From positions 326,414 to 390,413 of the forward strand of contig CAWAMM010000004.1 in the NCBI GenBank assembly GCA_963783145.1: a stretch of 64,000 nucleotides of DNA. Reading direction: 5' to 3'. Both the position numbers and the translations under genes were made by a program. The notes beneath the pieces were generated by a model. That model made no database searches, was not told the DNA's origin, and saw nothing but the letters and a program-made list of their open reading frames with translations. This DNA is from an uncultured delta proteobacterium. GTDB lineage: Bacteria; Desulfobacterota; Binatia; Binatales; Binataceae. This document shows, one piece after another, positions 34,086 through 40,897 of this stretch. Numbering within the stretch: position 1 is the first letter of the stretch; each line of letters opens with the position of its first letter.

Positions 34086-34301
34086 ATTGCCAGGGCGCGA
34101 TCATCGACGGCTAATCTTCCGGTGGTCGAAACCCTCTTAACATCGGGGCGCGCATGTATTATTCATTCTACTTGTCACCGGCATGGTTGAAGGGGCGTGA
34201 CCTCGGGGAATCGATGCGCCGGGACAGCAAATTTCTATTTGATGTGAAACGAGCGAATTCACCATTGTGCCCTGGAATGGCTGGATGAGGTCGATTACCG
34301 A

Positions 34302-35072
34302 ATGATTGAAGTACGGCATTTGACCAAGGTTTACGGCAACTTCGTCGCGGTCCGCGATGTGTCCTTCAATGCCGACCGCGGTTCGATTCTCGGCTTCCTC
34401 GGGCCCAATGGGGCCGGCAAAACCAGCACCATGCGGGTCATCACCGGCTTCATGCCCGCCACCTCGGGGACCGTGGTGATCGATGACCTCGACATTTTCG
34501 AGAATTCGCTCGAGGCGCGCCGCCGGATTGGCTACCTGCCGGAAAATCCGCCGCTGTATTCCGATATGCGCGTCGACGCGTATCTGCGCTTCGTGGCCAG
34601 ACTGCGCGGAGTGCCGCGAGCGAATGTGGAAAATGCACTCGAGCACGCGCTGAATGTGTGCGGCCTGGAAGACATGGCGCATCGCATCTGTGGGCAGCTT
34701 TCGAAGGGCTATCGCCAGCGCGTCGGTCTCGCGCAGGCGCTGATTCATGATCCTCCGGTGCTGGTGCTCGACGAGCCCACGATCGGCCTCGATCCGCGTC
34801 AGATTCACGAAATTCGCGGACTGATCAAAACGATGGCGACCGGCAATCGCACGGTGGTGCTCTCGACCCACATCCTGCCCGAGGTTTCGCAGATCTGTGA
34901 CAAGGTCGTGATCATCAACGAGGGCCGCGTCGCGCTGGAGCAGAAGATCGCGGATCTGCCGGCCGGAACCTCGCTCGAAGATGTCTTCCTGTCGGCGATC
35001 ACCAAGGAGCATCACGAGCTGGAGGGGAGCCGCGAGGAGACGTTGGAGGAGGTGGGAGCGGGGCGCGCCTAA
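34302..35072 (+). CDS. ABC transporter ATP-binding protein (ABC-2 / GldA-like)
   Basis: Walker A GPNGAGKTST. Signature LSKGYRQRVGLAQAL. Walker B LVLDEPT. Confidence 0.9.
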   Translation: MIEVRHLTKVYGNFVAVRDVSFNADRGSILGFLGPNGAGKTSTMRVITGFMPATSGTVVIDDLDIFENSLEARRRIGYLPENPPLYSDMRVDAYLRFVARLRGVPRANVENALEHALNVCGLEDMAHRICGQLSKGYRQRVGLAQALIHDPPVLVLDEPTIGLDPRQIHEIRGLIKTMATGNRTVVLSTHILPEVSQICDKVVIINEGRVALEQKIADLPAGTSLEDVFLSAITKEHHELEGSREETLEEVGAGRA

Positions 35073-35087
35073 GTCCCGGTCATCCAG

Positions 35088-35864
35088 ATGCGAAATTCAA
35101 TTACGATCGCGGGCAAAGAGCTCGCGGGATATTTCGTGCAGCCGGTCGCCTACGTGGTGATGACGGTGTTCCTCCTGTTGGGAGGATTTTTCTTCTTTTC
35201 GTTGCTGCAGCGATTCAGCATGCTGGTGCAAATGTACGCGGCGATGCAGAATCCGCAGGTCCTGCAGCGCATCAACCTGAATCAGATCGTGATCGAGCCG
35301 CTGCTGCACAATTTGTCGATCGTGCTGGTGATCCTGGTGCCCGCGATTACGATGCGCAGTTTCGCCGAGGAAAAACGCGCCGGCACCTACGAGCTGCTGC
35401 TGACCGCGCCGGTGCGCACCGGCGAAATCGTCGCGGGCAAGTTCATCGCGGCCTCCGCTTTCATGCTCATCATGATCGCGCTGGCGGGAATCTTCCCGCT
35501 GATCCTGGTCGCATTCGGCAATCCGGAAGTGGCGGTCATGCTGTCGGGATACGTTGGGCTCGCGATTCTTTCCATCGCGTTCATCTCGATCGGGCTGTTC
35601 ACCAGCTCGCTGACCCAGAACCAGATCATCGCGGCGATCACGTGCTTCGGCGTGTTGCTGATGCTGTACGTGATTTCATGGCCGGCGCAGGAAGGCAGCG
35701 AGTCGATCATGTCGGAACTGCTGCGCTATCTATCGCTGCCGGATCATTTCGGGCAGATGGTGACCGGCATCATCGATACCAAGGACCTCGTGTACTTTTT
35801 CAGCCTGATCCTCGTGTCGCTGTTCCTGACACAGCGCTCAGTAGAATCAGCGCGTTGGCGCTAA
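35088..35864 (+). CDS. ABC-2 family transporter permease
   Basis: Six predicted TM helices. Adjacent to the ABC ATPase. Confidence 0.75.
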   Translation: MRNSITIAGKELAGYFVQPVAYVVMTVFLLLGGFFFFSLLQRFSMLVQMYAAMQNPQVLQRINLNQIVIEPLLHNLSIVLVILVPAITMRSFAEEKRAGTYELLLTAPVRTGEIVAGKFIAASAFMLIMIALAGIFPLILVAFGNPEVAVMLSGYVGLAILSIAFISIGLFTSSLTQNQIIAAITCFGVLLMLYVISWPAQEGSESIMSELLRYLSLPDHFGQMVTGIIDTKDLVYFFSLILVSLFLTQRSVESARWR

Positions 35865-35879
35865 GCAAGGTAGGAGAGG

Positions 35880-37445
35880 ATGCAGCGGCGATCGGCGGCG
35901 CTTTACGGAATTCTCGGTCTTATCGCGTTACTTTTCGCGGCCTTTGCCTACTTTGTGGCGGCCGCGTTCCGGCCTTACATCTTCATCAACCTGATCGCGG
36001 GCGTGTTCCTGATCATCATGTGGATCAGCGCCGGATGGTCGGAGGTCGGGACCTTCGTCGGGCAGCGCTCGACCCAATACGGCGCCAACGCGGTTATCTA
36101 TTCGATAATCTTCGTCGCGATTTTGATCGCGGTGAACTATATCTCGGCACAGCATCACCGGCGCCTCGACATGAGCGAAGAGCGCGTCTACAGCCTCTCC
36201 ACGCAGTCGGTGAACGTGGTGAAGAACCTGCCGAAGCCGCTCAAGATGTACGGCTTCTTCGCGGGCGGTGACAATCCCACCGCGCTGGAACTCTACGAGG
36301 AGTACGCTTACGCCTCGCCCAAGGTGACCTTCCAGATGGTCGATCCGGATCGTAACCCGGAGCTCGCCGAACGCTACAAAGTGTCGGCCCTGGGCACCAC
36401 CCATCTGCAGTACGGCGGTGACGAAAACGGCAACGGCACCAACGTCACCGAGCTGTCCGAGGAAGCCATCACCAACGCGATCATTCGGGTCACCAAATCG
36501 GCCAAAAAGACCATCTGCTTCACCGATGGTCATGGCGAAGGCGATCCGGATGACGCGACCGGGCAGAACGGATACGGCACCCTCAAGACCGCGCTCGAAG
36601 GCGAAGGCTTCCAGATCAAAAAAGTCCTGCTCGCGACCCAGGCCTCGGTGCCAGACGATTGCACGATCCTCGCCATCGCCGGCCCGGTGAAGCCGCTCGA
36701 TCCACATGAACTCGACGCGGTCGGGAAATACCTTGACGGCGGCGGTCGTGCGCTCATCACGTTCCGCGCGCCGCGGCCCAACAACGAAGTCGACGAGGGC
36801 GGCCTGGTCAAGCTGGCCGGGCAATGGGGCGTCGATGCCGGCAACGATATCGTCGTCGATCAGGTGACGCGGCTGTTCGCGGCCCCCACGCTGGGCGTCA
36901 GTCCGCTGGTGCAGAACTACGGCACGCATCCGATTACCAAGGATTTCAAGGAGCGCACGATTTTCCCGATGTGCCGATCGGTGACGCCCGCCGCCAAGCC
37001 CAAAGACGGCGAGACGGTGACGCCGCTGGCCATGACCAGCGATACCTCGTGGGCGGAAACCGACATCGATGGAATTTTCAAGCGCCAGGAAGCCAAGCTC
37101 GATCCGCAGGACAAGCGCGGGCCGATCGACGTGGCTGACGCGGTCCAGGCCGCGCAGGAGAAAGCCGGCGCCGGCAAAGAAACCCGCATCGTCGTAATCG
37201 GGAGCACCGATGCGGGTGACAATCAGTGGGTCGGACAACTGTTCAACCGCGACTTCTTCGTCAACAGCGCCGACTGGCTGTCAGGCGAGGAAAATCAAAT
37301 TTCGATTCGTCCGCGGCAGTTGCGCTCGTCGCGCTTCCGGCTGACCGCCGAACAGTTCACCATCGTGTTCATCCTGTCGGTGTTGCTGTTGCCGGAACTA
37401 CTGCTGATCGCGGGGATCGTGGTGTGGTGGGAGCGGCGCAACTAA
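35880..37445 (+). CDS. GldG-like ABC-transporter auxiliary component
   Basis: N- and C-terminal TM anchors flanking a large periplasmic domain. Conserved position after an ABC-2 ATPase/permease pair. Confidence 0.65.
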   Translation: MQRRSAALYGILGLIALLFAAFAYFVAAAFRPYIFINLIAGVFLIIMWISAGWSEVGTFVGQRSTQYGANAVIYSIIFVAILIAVNYISAQHHRRLDMSEERVYSLSTQSVNVVKNLPKPLKMYGFFAGGDNPTALELYEEYAYASPKVTFQMVDPDRNPELAERYKVSALGTTHLQYGGDENGNGTNVTELSEEAITNAIIRVTKSAKKTICFTDGHGEGDPDDATGQNGYGTLKTALEGEGFQIKKVLLATQASVPDDCTILAIAGPVKPLDPHELDAVGKYLDGGGRALITFRAPRPNNEVDEGGLVKLAGQWGVDAGNDIVVDQVTRLFAAPTLGVSPLVQNYGTHPITKDFKERTIFPMCRSVTPAAKPKDGETVTPLAMTSDTSWAETDIDGIFKRQEAKLDPQDKRGPIDVADAVQAAQEKAGAGKETRIVVIGSTDAGDNQWVGQLFNRDFFVNSADWLSGEENQISIRPRQLRSSRFRLTAEQFTIVFILSVLLLPELLLIAGIVVWWERRN

Positions 37446-37464
37446 AGCCCGTATCGATTCGACA

Positions 37465-38904
37465 GTGAAGCGCTTTCGTAACACGCTCATCGCGCTGGTC
37501 GTGCTGCTGATCATCGGCGGCTACGCCTTCGTTAATTACTATTTCAGCAAGCCCGAAGCGGTGAAGACCGCGTTCAACATCAAGGCCGATGACATCGCGA
37601 AGATCGATTTGAAGTATCACGATCGCGATCTGGTGCTGGAGCATAAGCCGGGCGACCAATGGATCATCACCAAGCCAATCGGCGCCTTTGCGGATCAGAC
37701 CGCGGCCGGGAACCTGGCGCGCGCCATCGCCGATTGCCAAATCACCAAGACGGTCGAGGACAAGGCCGACAACCTCGCGCCGTTCGGCCTCGACAAGCCG
37801 CAGGTGACCGTGATTGTCACCGATACCAAGGGCAAGACGCTGCCTGGGCTCGAGGTCGGGAAGGTTACGCCGGTAGGATTTTCCGCCTACCTGAAGTACA
37901 CCGACCAGCCGCAAATCATGCTGACCTCGTCGGCGTTTCCGTCGGGGATGAACAAGACCATCGACCAGATGCGCGATCGCGAGTTGATGTCGTTCAAGGT
38001 CGACGATGTCCAGAAGCTGCTGATCACGCATGACGACGGGACTCAAATCGAGATCGATCGCGACGGCGACAAGTGGAAAATCGTCAAGCCCGGCAACTAT
38101 GAAGCCGATCCGACCCAGGTCCGGCAGATCCTGACCACCCTGGGCGATTCCAAGGTCGCGGATTTCATTACCGACGCGCCTACCAATGCGGCCCAGTACG
38201 GCCTCGAGAAACCGCATCTCGTCGCCACGGTTTATCTCAAAAAGGGCGGCGCGCAGGAGTCGTTGCTGTTCGGCTTCAAGCAGAAGGAGCAGGGCAAGGA
38301 CGGCATCTACGTGCGGCGCGGCGAGCGCGCGCCCATCTATACGATCGCGCCATGGGTGATGAGCGGGGTCGACAAGACGGTGCTCAATCTGCGCGACAAG
38401 ACCGTGCTGTCTTTCGATTCGTCACAGATCGACACCATCGAGATCAAACCGAGTGACAAGCCGCAGTTCGAGATCAAGCGTGCCGGCAACGATAAGTGGA
38501 ACGTCGTCGCCGCCGGCAAAACCTCGCCCGCGGATTTGGCGATCGTCGAGCGTTTCCTGGATCAGATTCACGATTTGAAAGGCAACTCCATCATCATGGA
38601 CCCGATCAAGAGTCCCGAGATGTTTGGGATGGATAAGCCCTCGCTCACCGTTACGCTTCAGGACAAGGATGGAAAACAGGTCGGGCAGCTCAGGCTTTCG
38701 AAGATCGAGGTGAAGAAGGCGCCCACCGCGGCGACCTCGGAAGCGCCGCCGTCGGCGAGCACGCAAACCGATTACTATGCCGCATCGAGCGGGAGCGGGG
38801 CGTTGTTTTCCACCGACGAGTTCCTCTTCAGCCAGTTGAACAAGACCGCCGACGAATTCCGCGCGAAAGAATCTGCGACACCGGCCGCGACGCCGAAGAA
38901 ATAG
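37465..38904 (+). CDS. Periplasmic protein of the GldG-associated family (DUF4340-like)
   Basis: N-terminal TM anchor. Repeated about 90-aa modules. Position as the fourth gene of the ABC-2/GldG cluster. Confidence 0.5.
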   Translation: MKRFRNTLIALVVLLIIGGYAFVNYYFSKPEAVKTAFNIKADDIAKIDLKYHDRDLVLEHKPGDQWIITKPIGAFADQTAAGNLARAIADCQITKTVEDKADNLAPFGLDKPQVTVIVTDTKGKTLPGLEVGKVTPVGFSAYLKYTDQPQIMLTSSAFPSGMNKTIDQMRDRELMSFKVDDVQKLLITHDDGTQIEIDRDGDKWKIVKPGNYEADPTQVRQILTTLGDSKVADFITDAPTNAAQYGLEKPHLVATVYLKKGGAQESLLFGFKQKEQGKDGIYVRRGERAPIYTIAPWVMSGVDKTVLNLRDKTVLSFDSSQIDTIEIKPSDKPQFEIKRAGNDKWNVVAAGKTSPADLAIVERFLDQIHDLKGNSIIMDPIKSPEMFGMDKPSLTVTLQDKDGKQVGQLRLSKIEVKKAPTAATSEAPPSASTQTDYYAASSGSGALFSTDEFLFSQLNKTADEFRAKESATPAATPKK

Positions 38905-39642: not shown

Positions 39643-40134
39643 ATGGCGCTACGAAAAAAGCAGGAAGGCAAACTCATCGTCGAGCAAACGCGCGACCTCG
39701 GGGTCCTGCGCGCGATGCTTTCCGGCGCGGACATGCTCACCGAGGGCCTCGAATGGCCGCCCGCGTGCTATCTCGTCGCGTACTTCGGAACCGAGCCGGT
39801 TGGCGTGATTGGAGTCGAGCCGAGCCTCGATGCTGCACTCCTTCGTTCGCTCTATGTCGTCGAGGCAATGCGCCGGCACGGCATCGCCACGGAGCTGATT
39901 GCGGCGGCGCGCAAAGCGGCGCATACGCGCGGTGCGCGCTCGCTATATCTCTTCAGCACTGACGCCGGCGAGTTTTTTAAGCGATTTGGCTTTGTTCAAG
40001 TGCCGGTCGCGCAACTGGTCGCGGCGCTCGGCGCGGCGCCGCAGGTCAAGTACTACATCGCACGTCCCGACGAGCTCGCGCACGAGGTCGCATGGCACCT
40101 CGACATTTCGCAGGACGGCATCATCTTGCGGTAG
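39643..40134 (+). CDS. GNAT-family N-acetyltransferase (ArsN2/ArgA-like)
   Basis: Acetyl-CoA-binding-like segment (RRHGIATELIAAARKAAHTRGARSLYLFS...FFKRFGF). Confidence 0.55.
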   Translation: MALRKKQEGKLIVEQTRDLGVLRAMLSGADMLTEGLEWPPACYLVAYFGTEPVGVIGVEPSLDAALLRSLYVVEAMRRHGIATELIAAARKAAHTRGARSLYLFSTDAGEFFKRFGFVQVPVAQLVAALGAAPQVKYYIARPDELAHEVAWHLDISQDGIILR

Positions 40135-40897
40135 TCGGCGGCTCGTAGCGGCCGAGGTAATTGCCCGACGACGTCGTCACCAGAAGGTAGCGATGACTTT
40201 TCAGCAGCTCGGCGGCGAGGCGATGGGTCATGTCGGGGCGAATCGTCTGCGGCGCGGGATTTATCGCCTCGATCGCGCGACTGCTCCCGGCATTCGTTTC
40301 GACCGCGCCGAGAAGAATGCCATCCGAATTCAGGACGACTCCACTTACATCGGTGCGCGGGCCTGAAATGGCGATCGAATCCGACGGATGCAGGCGCTGC
40401 AGATCATCGTGCGTGCGTTGCGCGATGGTGGGACGTCGCGAGATCGCGATCCAGCCCGCGCGAACTCCGGGCGCAAGGTTGTTGATGAAGTAGGGCAGGG
40501 CGCGCAGCTTCTTCCGCATCGGCGGCGTGGGATCGCATGGCAATCCGCGCAGCAGCCAGTCAGCCTTGCCGCGCAGATAATGCATCACCTCGCGATAGCC
40601 GAGAAATTCGAGCTGCGCCGCAGCCCGCGCGCTGAGGTCTCACAAACAATCGCGGCAGTAGACGACGACCGGCCGCTTCTTATCGAGCGCATGCTCGGCC
40701 TGGTGCAGCAGCTTCGGGAGGGGCAGATGAATCGCTCCCCGAATGGCCGCGATGCGATGCTCATGCGCCGGCAAAACGTCAACGACCTGGCCGCCCGCAG
40801 CGAGGATTCTCAGAACTTCGCGATGATCGACGACGCGCACATTGGAGGAGCGGCGATCCGAGCAATTACTCGGCGGACCGCCGCTCAAGAATCGCAA
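40121..40897 (-). CDS. Rhodanese-like sulfurtransferase with an in-frame TGA (40640..40642) at the position aligning with the catalytic Cys. Candidate selenoprotein, otherwise a pseudogene. It has an uncharacterised C-terminal extension of about 137 aa
   Basis: ORFs 40640..40897 and 40121..40588 are in the same frame, separated by a single TGA. Read-through gives ...KKRPVVVYCRDCL-[TGA]-DLSARAAAQLEFLGYREVMHYLRGKADWLLRGLPCD. This aligns with GlpE ...[22 protein letters not shown]...GG..AW, placing the catalytic Cys at the TGA. Confidence 0.6.

Follow-up and report, generated by a model that had tools for sequence, protein, structure and literature searches.

The selenoproteins with a rhodanese domain form an established class (PMC13188914, PMC9312934), and five forms are distinguished in a 2026 review, namely UxxS, UxxG, CxU (NF041203), a further UxxG form, and the UxxxxU form of TsoB (NF045694) (PMC13188914). 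A different selenocysteine (Sec) site within the same domain is counted as a different subfamily, and most C..U or U..C selenoproteins are described as homologous to thiol-based oxidoreductases (PMC9312934). Here, we analysed a 64,000-nucleotide stretch of DNA (hereafter, the window; contig CAWAMM010000004.1, assembly GCA_963783145.1) from an uncultured bacterium of the family Binataceae, in which a minus-strand gene for a rhodanese-like protein is broken by one in-frame TGA codon. On comparison with its relatives, the gene very likely encodes a genuine selenoprotein that is widely conserved and has been mis-annotated systematically, and we infer that the UGA at codon 67 is decoded as Sec. The first-pass annotation, which had called the gene a candidate selenocysteine sulfurtransferase with Sec in place of the catalytic Cys, was right in kind but wrong on which residue is replaced: judged from alignments, the canonical Cys is retained and Sec takes the place of a second Cys that is conserved across the family.

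The predicted protein shares with the known rhodanese selenoproteins the PF00581 fold, a Sec in or beside the active-site loop and the existence of Cys homologues. As in form 3 (LYCAU), the canonical Cys is kept and Sec lies downstream of it, and the x4 spacing between the two chalcogen residues is that of TsoB. On the other hand, its Sec lies at +5 from the canonical Cys (C-x4-U), in a loop insertion, whereas Sec occupies the canonical catalytic position itself in the two UxxG forms (forms 2 and 4) and lies at +2 in the CxU form, and the window protein differs from the known forms in its C-terminal CBS pair and its Binataceae lineage. Against the family models, it scored 19.7 bits with NF041203 (rhodanese_LYCAU; cutoff, 115 bits) and 27.2 bits with NF045694 (TsoB; cutoff, 805 bits), the latter over the rhodanese part only; TsoB is a rhodanese/DsbD fusion with two Sec residues, whereas the window protein has a single Sec and lacks a DsbD-like region. 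Of the remaining NCBIfam selenoprotein models, none matched the window protein. Form 1 (UxxS; Geobacter WP_010941598.1) was compared by motif description only: the window site, U-D-L-S, fits that motif and identity with form 1 is possible, and with this reservation the window protein looks like a new Sec form of rhodanese selenoprotein. The table of forms 1 to 5 belongs to the Zhang and Gladyshev lineage of papers. In the literature, we found no work on selenocysteine in Binatota, the single co-occurrence of the two terms being a reference-list entry.

Translation of window positions 40897..40121 on the minus strand gave one frame whose sole internal stop is the TGA at 40642..40640, in agreement with the earlier description of two open reading frames (ORFs) in a single frame split only by this codon. 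The product around the TGA reads ...RPVVVYCRDCL, then the stop, then DLSARAAAQLEFLGYREV.... The frame resumes at 40639, directly after the TGA, so that the ORF 40121..40588 that had been taken as a unit merely begins at the first internal GTG. Similarly, the upstream ORF had been started at 40897, and the start is most likely the GTG at 40840, which the N-termini of homologues (MRIVDHREV/VREIQH) match; the TTG at 40897 is an improbable start because the nearest relatives (L001-L005 without L003) have just 67-69 open codons ahead of the TGA. The gene product thus has 239 residues and consists of a rhodanese domain and a CBS pair, and full-length Cys homologues (236-251 residues) cover 97-100% of it. 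Although 39 same-frame TGA junctions with high GC content at third codon positions were present in the window, protein-like sequence was found on both sides only at 40642..40640. The features of the gene and of its rhodanese part are as follows.

40121..40840, minus strand: complete gene of 239 codons, with the GTG start at 40840..40838, the Sec-UGA as codon 67 and the stop TGA at 40123..40121.

40526..40840, minus strand: rhodanese homology domain, about residues 1-105, with the extended loop C62-R-D-C-L-U67-D-L-S.

40655..40657, minus strand: TGC codon of Cys62, which is the catalytic Cys of canonical rhodaneses and closes the strand VVVY; TGC in 59 of 59 scored sequences.

40640..40642, minus strand: in-frame UGA, putative Sec codon U67; TGA in 48 of 59 Binataceae loci and in the window, TGC in 11.

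Two types of relatives came up in a protein search, namely 'rhodanese-related sulfurtransferases' of 236-251 residues and many 'hypothetical proteins' of about 150-177 residues, which cover the C-terminal 64-71% only. The full-length relatives (P0001 and P0004-P0020) read VVVYCRDCLCDLSARAAAQLE, with Cys exactly at the window's TGA. We fetched the DNA of one genome per species, which gave 60 loci, in stretches of about 12-21 kb per genome, all from Binataceae or 'delta proteobacterium' metagenome-assembled genomes (MAGs). Of 59 species-level genomes, 48 have TGA at the Sec column and 11 have TGC (Cys), and none has TAA or TAG; when the window was included, the 60 sequences comprised 49 TGA and 11 TGC and no other codon. 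This pattern is far beyond chance, and the codon proposed for Sec in the first-pass annotation does alternate with Cys among orthologues. The TGC forms occupied at least four separate places in a neighbour-joining tree and, therefore, the exchange between Sec and Cys has recurred. The 60th locus, L052 (5940-6760; the same MAG as L003, CAWBJR01), is a second copy of the gene that has two frameshifts and retains the TGA. Decay of a duplicate, strain heterogeneity or long-read indel errors would each account for this copy. The downstream frames of L054-L058 are truncated as well.

A pseudogene, or a sequencing or assembly error, could in principle produce the same break through a recent TGC>TGA mutation or miscall in an ordinary Cys-rhodanese gene, as TGA is one substitution from TGC and frameshifts do occur in some long-read MAG copies (L052, L054-L058). 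However, the TGA is found in all 48 species-representative genomes counted above, in at least 15 short-read assemblies (MEGAHIT, SPAdes) as well as in long-read MAGs, and in four assemblies (L061-L064) that were obtained independently, from different samples, for the population to which the window belongs. These four carry the same gene with 98-100% identity and, because they share the TGA, it is genuine and not a read error. Furthermore, constraint of the coding type was seen on both sides of the TGA. Specifically, the entropies at codon positions 1/2/3 across the 48 TGA genes were 0.87/0.71/1.31 upstream and 0.56/0.35/1.16 downstream, and the order third>first>second in the same frame on both sides is that of coding-type evolution. 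With the absence of TAA and TAG from the column, these comparative data effectively refute an explanation by decay or error, to which we assign a negligible probability.

Translation might instead end at the UGA to give a 66-residue peptide, with a separate protein of 155-172 residues starting downstream, and the databases indeed hold many 'hypothetical proteins' of 150-177 residues and fragments of 66-67 residues that were called in this way. On the other hand, such a break would cut the rhodanese fold within its active-site loop, at a near-invariant Cys, and the Cys forms are contiguous single proteins. In addition, no start is conserved after the TGA: the GTG-ATG of the window is GTC-CGC in most orthologues, and gene callers chose varying TTG, CTG or GTG starts. 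The hairpin constraint described below, which is specific to the TGA genes, also speaks against two genes, and we regard this arrangement as very improbable. Note that the callers split the gene at the UGA into an N-terminal fragment ending in ...YCRDxL (P0254, P0258 and P0268; 66-67 residues) and a C-terminal 'hypothetical protein' whose false start varies (P0002, P0003, P0031 and others; 150-177 residues), as is also seen in the calls for L061-L064; at 50% clustering, the top family representatives are such split fragments.

The rhodanese-like nature of the gene was confirmed. Pfam PF00581 spans the stop with 40.4 bits against a cutoff of 22.2 (E = 4e-10), and the same domain was matched by 27 of 27 homologues. 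The AlphaFold2 (AF2) model of the rhodanese part had predicted local distance difference test (pLDDT) values of 84-96 outside the loop, and its best Foldseek matches, with prob 1.00, were BH2092 (3nhv) and other rhodaneses. The TGA had been placed on the catalytic Cys by the first-pass annotation, but that residue corresponds to the invariant Cys62. Its codon was TGC in all 59 scored sequences (48 of the TGA group and 11 of the TGC group), it stands at a strand end in the AF2 model, and phmmer alignments to 6mxv, 3tp9 and 1wv9 matched the catalytic Cys to the first Cys in VVVYC, with a two-residue gap opposite the Sec column. An alignment to GlpE by hhalign, of low probability, placed Cys65 on Cys62 (...VVVYC-RDCLCDWSARAAAQ) in the same register as phmmer. 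Sec67 lies five residues further downstream, in a two-residue insertion; the loop has the signature C-x-D-x-x-U/C-D and exceeds that of standard rhodaneses by two residues. Because the intervening residue in YCRD[CSAV]LU varies among C, S, A and V, the apparent 'CxU' of the window is incidental.

The second Cys is not confined to the close relatives. Among 1.8 billion cluster representatives searched with a profile, we found a wider rhodanese-CBS family of two-domain proteins of 210-245 residues, the named members of which belong to Acidimicrobiales and Chloroflexota and bear generic names only. Its signature is Y-C-x-D-x-x-C-D-[LMV]-S-x-R, and the second Cys, which corresponds to the Sec column, was found in 63 of 66 wider-family representatives, indicating that this column is functionally constrained. 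P0150 and P0228 carry Trp (SLWDMS) or Arg (ALRDMS) in this column. TGG and CGA/AGA each differ from TGA by one nucleotide, and these residues might go back to Sec codons outside Binataceae that were mutated or miscalled. A literature search for rhodanese-CBS fusions found no paper.

Among solved structures, the nearest counterpart is BH2092 from Bacillus halodurans (PDB 3NHV/3O3W), a rhodanese that was solved by structural genomics and has no assigned function; it is the best structural match of the AF2 model. It is the sole solved rhodanese that aligns through the loop without a gap, with the C-x4-C spacing and an equal loop length (yCwgpaCngatkaaa in BH2092, yCrdclC/UdlsaraaA in the window family). 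On the other hand, BH2092 has neither Sec nor a CBS pair and lacks the conserved Asp residues at +2 and +6, and the identity is 24-28%. E. coli GlpE and PspE share the fold and have a catalytic Cys where the central strand ends, a residue conserved as Cys62; their loop has the standard six residues, C-x-x-G-x-[RS], whereas that of the window protein is two residues longer and has a second Cys or Sec and two Asp, and the window protein has the CBS pair in addition. Its matches to PspE models were sub-threshold.

A stem-loop had also been noticed just 3' of the UGA, and part of it stood. The inner pairing GGGCUGC/GCAGCUC is conserved; the outer pairing ACCUC...GAGGU is lost in homologues, and we rejected this outer stem as part of the element. 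The mRNA of all TGA genes reads UGA GAC CUC AGC GCG CGR GCU GCG GCG CAG CUC GA. With the U of UGA numbered as position 1, the hairpin resembling a selenocysteine insertion sequence (SECIS) is located as follows.

40609..40627, minus strand: SECIS-like hairpin with the stem C16-C23/G27-G34 and the loop G24 G25 C26, overlapping the codons R-A-A-A-Q-L.

This hairpin has 8 bp and a GGC loop and begins 13 nt after the UGA. On local folding, it was dominant, with -12.9 kcal/mol and 89% of the ensemble, and RNAalifold, given the alignment of 49 sequences, found its inner seven pairs again. In this alignment, 99% of the cells were paired at the true register and 17-50% when the stem was slid. The published constraints for a bacterial SECIS (bSECIS) are an apical loop of 3-9 nt with G in its first two positions, an upper stem of 4-16 bp, a UGA-to-loop distance of 16-37 nt and a minimum free energy of -7.5 kcal/mol or lower (PMC13188914). 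The values of the hairpin lie within all of them.

Apical loop: 3-9 nt in the model; GGC (3 nt) or C-GGC-G in the hairpin.

Upper stem: 4-16 bp in the model; 7-8 bp in the hairpin.

UGA-to-loop spacing: 16-37 nt in the model; 20 nt in the hairpin.

Folding energy: -7.5 kcal/mol or lower in the model; -12.9 kcal/mol in the hairpin.

Loop G rule: N1-G-[G/U]-N-N2 in the model; C-GGC-G in the hairpin.

Like the bSECIS consensus and the element of E. coli fdhF, it is a hairpin that closely follows the UGA within the reading frame, with a loop that starts with GG. In contrast to the fdhF element, its sequence is unrelated, no bulged U is evident, and its triloop or pentaloop is closed by C-G. The loop residues G23/U24 of E. 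coli fdhF lie at nearly the same distance from the UGA.

Codon variation at the hairpin differed between TGA and TGC genes. The third-position entropies of codons +6 to +10 were 0.15/0/0/0/0.15 in the TGA genes, whereas those of codons +6 to +8 were 0.99/0.44/0.68 in the TGC genes, and the codons flanking the hairpin in the TGA set had 1-1.6 bits of variation. GCU makes up 5% of the window's Ala codons, yet it was present at the hairpin site in 47 of 48 TGA genes. At the hairpin Arg, the TGA genes used CGA or CGG (8% and 17% usage, respectively) in 47 of 48 cases and AGA in one; CGC, which accounts for 60% of Arg codons and would mispair, was never used there. In the TGA genes, stem substitutions leave the bases paired: A-U became G·U in 20 sequences, and a further G·U and a U·G occurred once each. 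Those in the TGC genes (U21C, C23G, G27A) break the pairing. The full stem was intact in 45 of 49 TGA sequences and in 3 of 11 TGC sequences (Fisher p = 2.6e-5, with no phylogenetic correction). By this comparison, the hairpin is under RNA-level selection only where the codon is UGA, and the contrast between TGA and TGC orthologues is the strongest evidence for the putative RNA element. The SECIS suspected in the first-pass annotation thus gained support from both its geometry and a constraint that is specific to TGA genes.

Several results weigh against decoding by Sec and a SECIS. No compensatory double substitution was found in the stem across the 49-sequence alignment; because the stem is almost invariant, the structural support rests on constraint and on the TGA/TGC contrast, without covariation, and for the same reason a covariation shuffle control says little. 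In this GC-rich context, the folding energy was no better than that of dinucleotide shuffles, with z values of +0.9 (76 nt) and -0.9 (30 nt); such a comparison tells little in GC-rich coding DNA, and it was the comparative data that settled the matter. Rfam at the gathering score returned no family, the SECIS families included, for the whole window, and a permissive E-value Rfam scan of 40540..40680 gave only two chance-level matches (P37 and sR32). As regards the redox pair proposed below, confidence in the AF2 model is lowest at the active-site loop (pLDDT about 69). As for the Sec machinery, neither selA, selB, selD nor a tRNA-Sec was present in the 64-kb window or in the 60 loci, which are genome fractions of at most ~12.7 kb each: ARAGORN found only tRNA-Phe and no tRNA-Sec in the window and the 60 loci, and tblastn with E. 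coli SelA, SelB and SelD returned nothing from ~0.8 Mb, a small fraction of each genome. The Sec machinery of these genomes is the main residual uncertainty.

The lack of Sec machinery in the small genome fractions searched would suit a readthrough or recoding without Sec, by hairpin-stimulated near-cognate insertion of Trp, Cys or Arg or by a lineage-specific suppressor tRNA, and the Trp and Arg of the two wider-family representatives, with codons one nucleotide away from TGA, point the same way. On the other hand, TGA alternates specifically with Cys at a conserved Cys column, which is the classical signature of Sec, the hairpin matches the bSECIS geometry together with the GG loop rule, and rhodanese-domain selenoproteins are already established (PMC13188914, PMC9312934). 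In addition, TGA is the commonest ordinary stop of the window's long ORFs (15 of 37) and also terminates this very gene; UGA is therefore not globally reassigned. We consider readthrough without Sec improbable, and Sec at codon 67 is the reading on which the following account is based.

Downstream of the rhodanese domain, the gene encodes two further elements.

40439..40525, minus strand: helical linker (PYFINNLAPG...), with helices 108-122 and 124-133 in AF2 models.

40145..40438, minus strand: CBS pair (Bateman module), about residues 135-232.

The linker residues N120, N121, P124, R127 and W130 are conserved. The C-terminal extension, which had been left unexplained, is a CBS pair by its fold and only partly by its sequence. 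Pfam CBS was significant in 11 of 27 full-length homologues (best E = 5e-7), and the window protein itself stayed sub-threshold, with 14.6 bits against a 24-bit cutoff. The AF2 model of the C-terminal 154 residues, built from a 60-sequence alignment, had a pLDDT of 81.8, and about 90 over the last 100 residues. With this model, Foldseek matched at prob 1.00 the CBS dimer of OpuCA (5ks7, c-di-AMP) and CBSX2 (4gqy, AMP) as well as AcuB and the cytosolic domain of MgtE, with 5ks7, 4gqy, 2emq and 9s51 among the entries matched. The C-terminal 100 residues thus share the CBS-pair fold with OpuCA, CBSX1/2, AcuB and the cytosolic domain of MgtE; they differ from those modules in sequence, with 12-20% identity and a score under the Pfam CBS cutoff. 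According to their entry descriptions, the matched CBS structures bind AMP, ATP, S-adenosylmethionine or c-di-AMP.

Based on these observations, we propose the following mechanism. The hairpin would act as a bacterial SECIS and recruit SelB·GTP·Sec-tRNASec to a ribosome paused at the UGA, so that one cytoplasmic protein of 239 residues is made, with the N-terminal rhodanese joined to the C-terminal CBS pair. Within the loop Y-C-x-D-x-x-U-D-L-S-x-R, Cys62 and Sec67 would act as a redox pair, as the analogy with other C..U proteins suggests: one of them would take up sulfane sulfur or an oxidised substrate, and the other would resolve it via a selenenylsulfide. With such chemistry, the rhodanese would be redox-active and act like a reductase instead of simply carrying sulfur. 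The CBS pair probably makes this activity responsive to an adenosyl ligand. A role in binding a metal or metalloid is also conceivable for the two conserved Asp residues (C-x-D-x-x-U-D). Taken as a whole, the proposal that this is a sixth rhodanese-selenoprotein form and the first in Binatota, with Sec as the resolving chalcogen and the Cys-Sec pair under the control of a nucleotide-sensing CBS module, is a tentative one, in which our confidence falls clearly short of even.

The flanking locus was described as intact in the first-pass annotation, and it is indeed intact, and syntenic, in about 45-50 genomes. The conserved order is acyl-CoA dehydrogenase (ACAD), ABM monooxygenase, in most loci a DegT aminotransferase and a ceramidase-like gene, the rhodanese-CBS gene, a convergent GNAT gene, ferredoxin and AcpS, and no sulfur or selenium pathway is suggested by this conserved neighbourhood. 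The 3' ends of the GNAT gene (39643..40134, plus strand) and of the selenoprotein gene (stop at 40121, minus strand) overlap by 14 nt (40121-40134), and this overlap is kept in most loci. In most Binatus loci, for example at 3347-5997 of L009, ~2.6 kb lie between the ABM gene and the rhodanese-CBS gene and encode a DegT/DnrJ-type aminotransferase (426 residues) and a neutral-ceramidase-like protein (454 residues); this insert is absent from the window and from its closest relatives L001, L002, L004, L005 and L045. Upstream of AcpS, the window (34248-38904, plus strand) holds a four-gene cluster of an ABC ATPase, an ABC-2 permease, an ABC_transp_aux/DUF7088 protein and a DUF4340 protein, with Pfam labels taken from the identical genes of L061, which has no evident link to the selenoprotein. 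One divergent clade lacks the ACAD/ABM/GNAT/ferredoxin synteny and has a tRNA-Phe (GAA) ~4-5 kb upstream of the gene (L040, 2085-2160; L053, 1318-1393; L059, 452-527; L060, 1044-1119). A promoter and terminator scan gave no signal above shuffle expectation.

As for annotation, assigning a Sec codon repairs a conserved Binataceae gene that is now split into pieces of 66 and ~155 residues in dozens of genomes and metagenomes. It also indicates that the Binataceae, an abundant, uncultured lineage of soil and peat, decode UGA as Sec, which would be the first sign of Sec use in Binatota. Our understanding of Sec decoding itself is unchanged, and no new principle is involved; the TGA/TGC contrast nevertheless offers a natural experiment, in which a putative coding-embedded SECIS is held by rare codons and decays once Sec has been replaced. 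The result also points to a subclass of rhodaneses in which two conserved chalcogen residues stand five positions apart. In the experience of the field, Sec substitutions mark redox-active Cys residues, and for this reason the second Cys of the rhodanese-CBS family, and perhaps that of BH2092-type proteins, is a candidate for a catalytic residue. If true, the assignment of a resolving chalcogen to this position would define the chemistry of a large rhodanese-CBS family that spans Binataceae, Acidimicrobiales and Chloroflexota and has been mis-annotated as two fragments.

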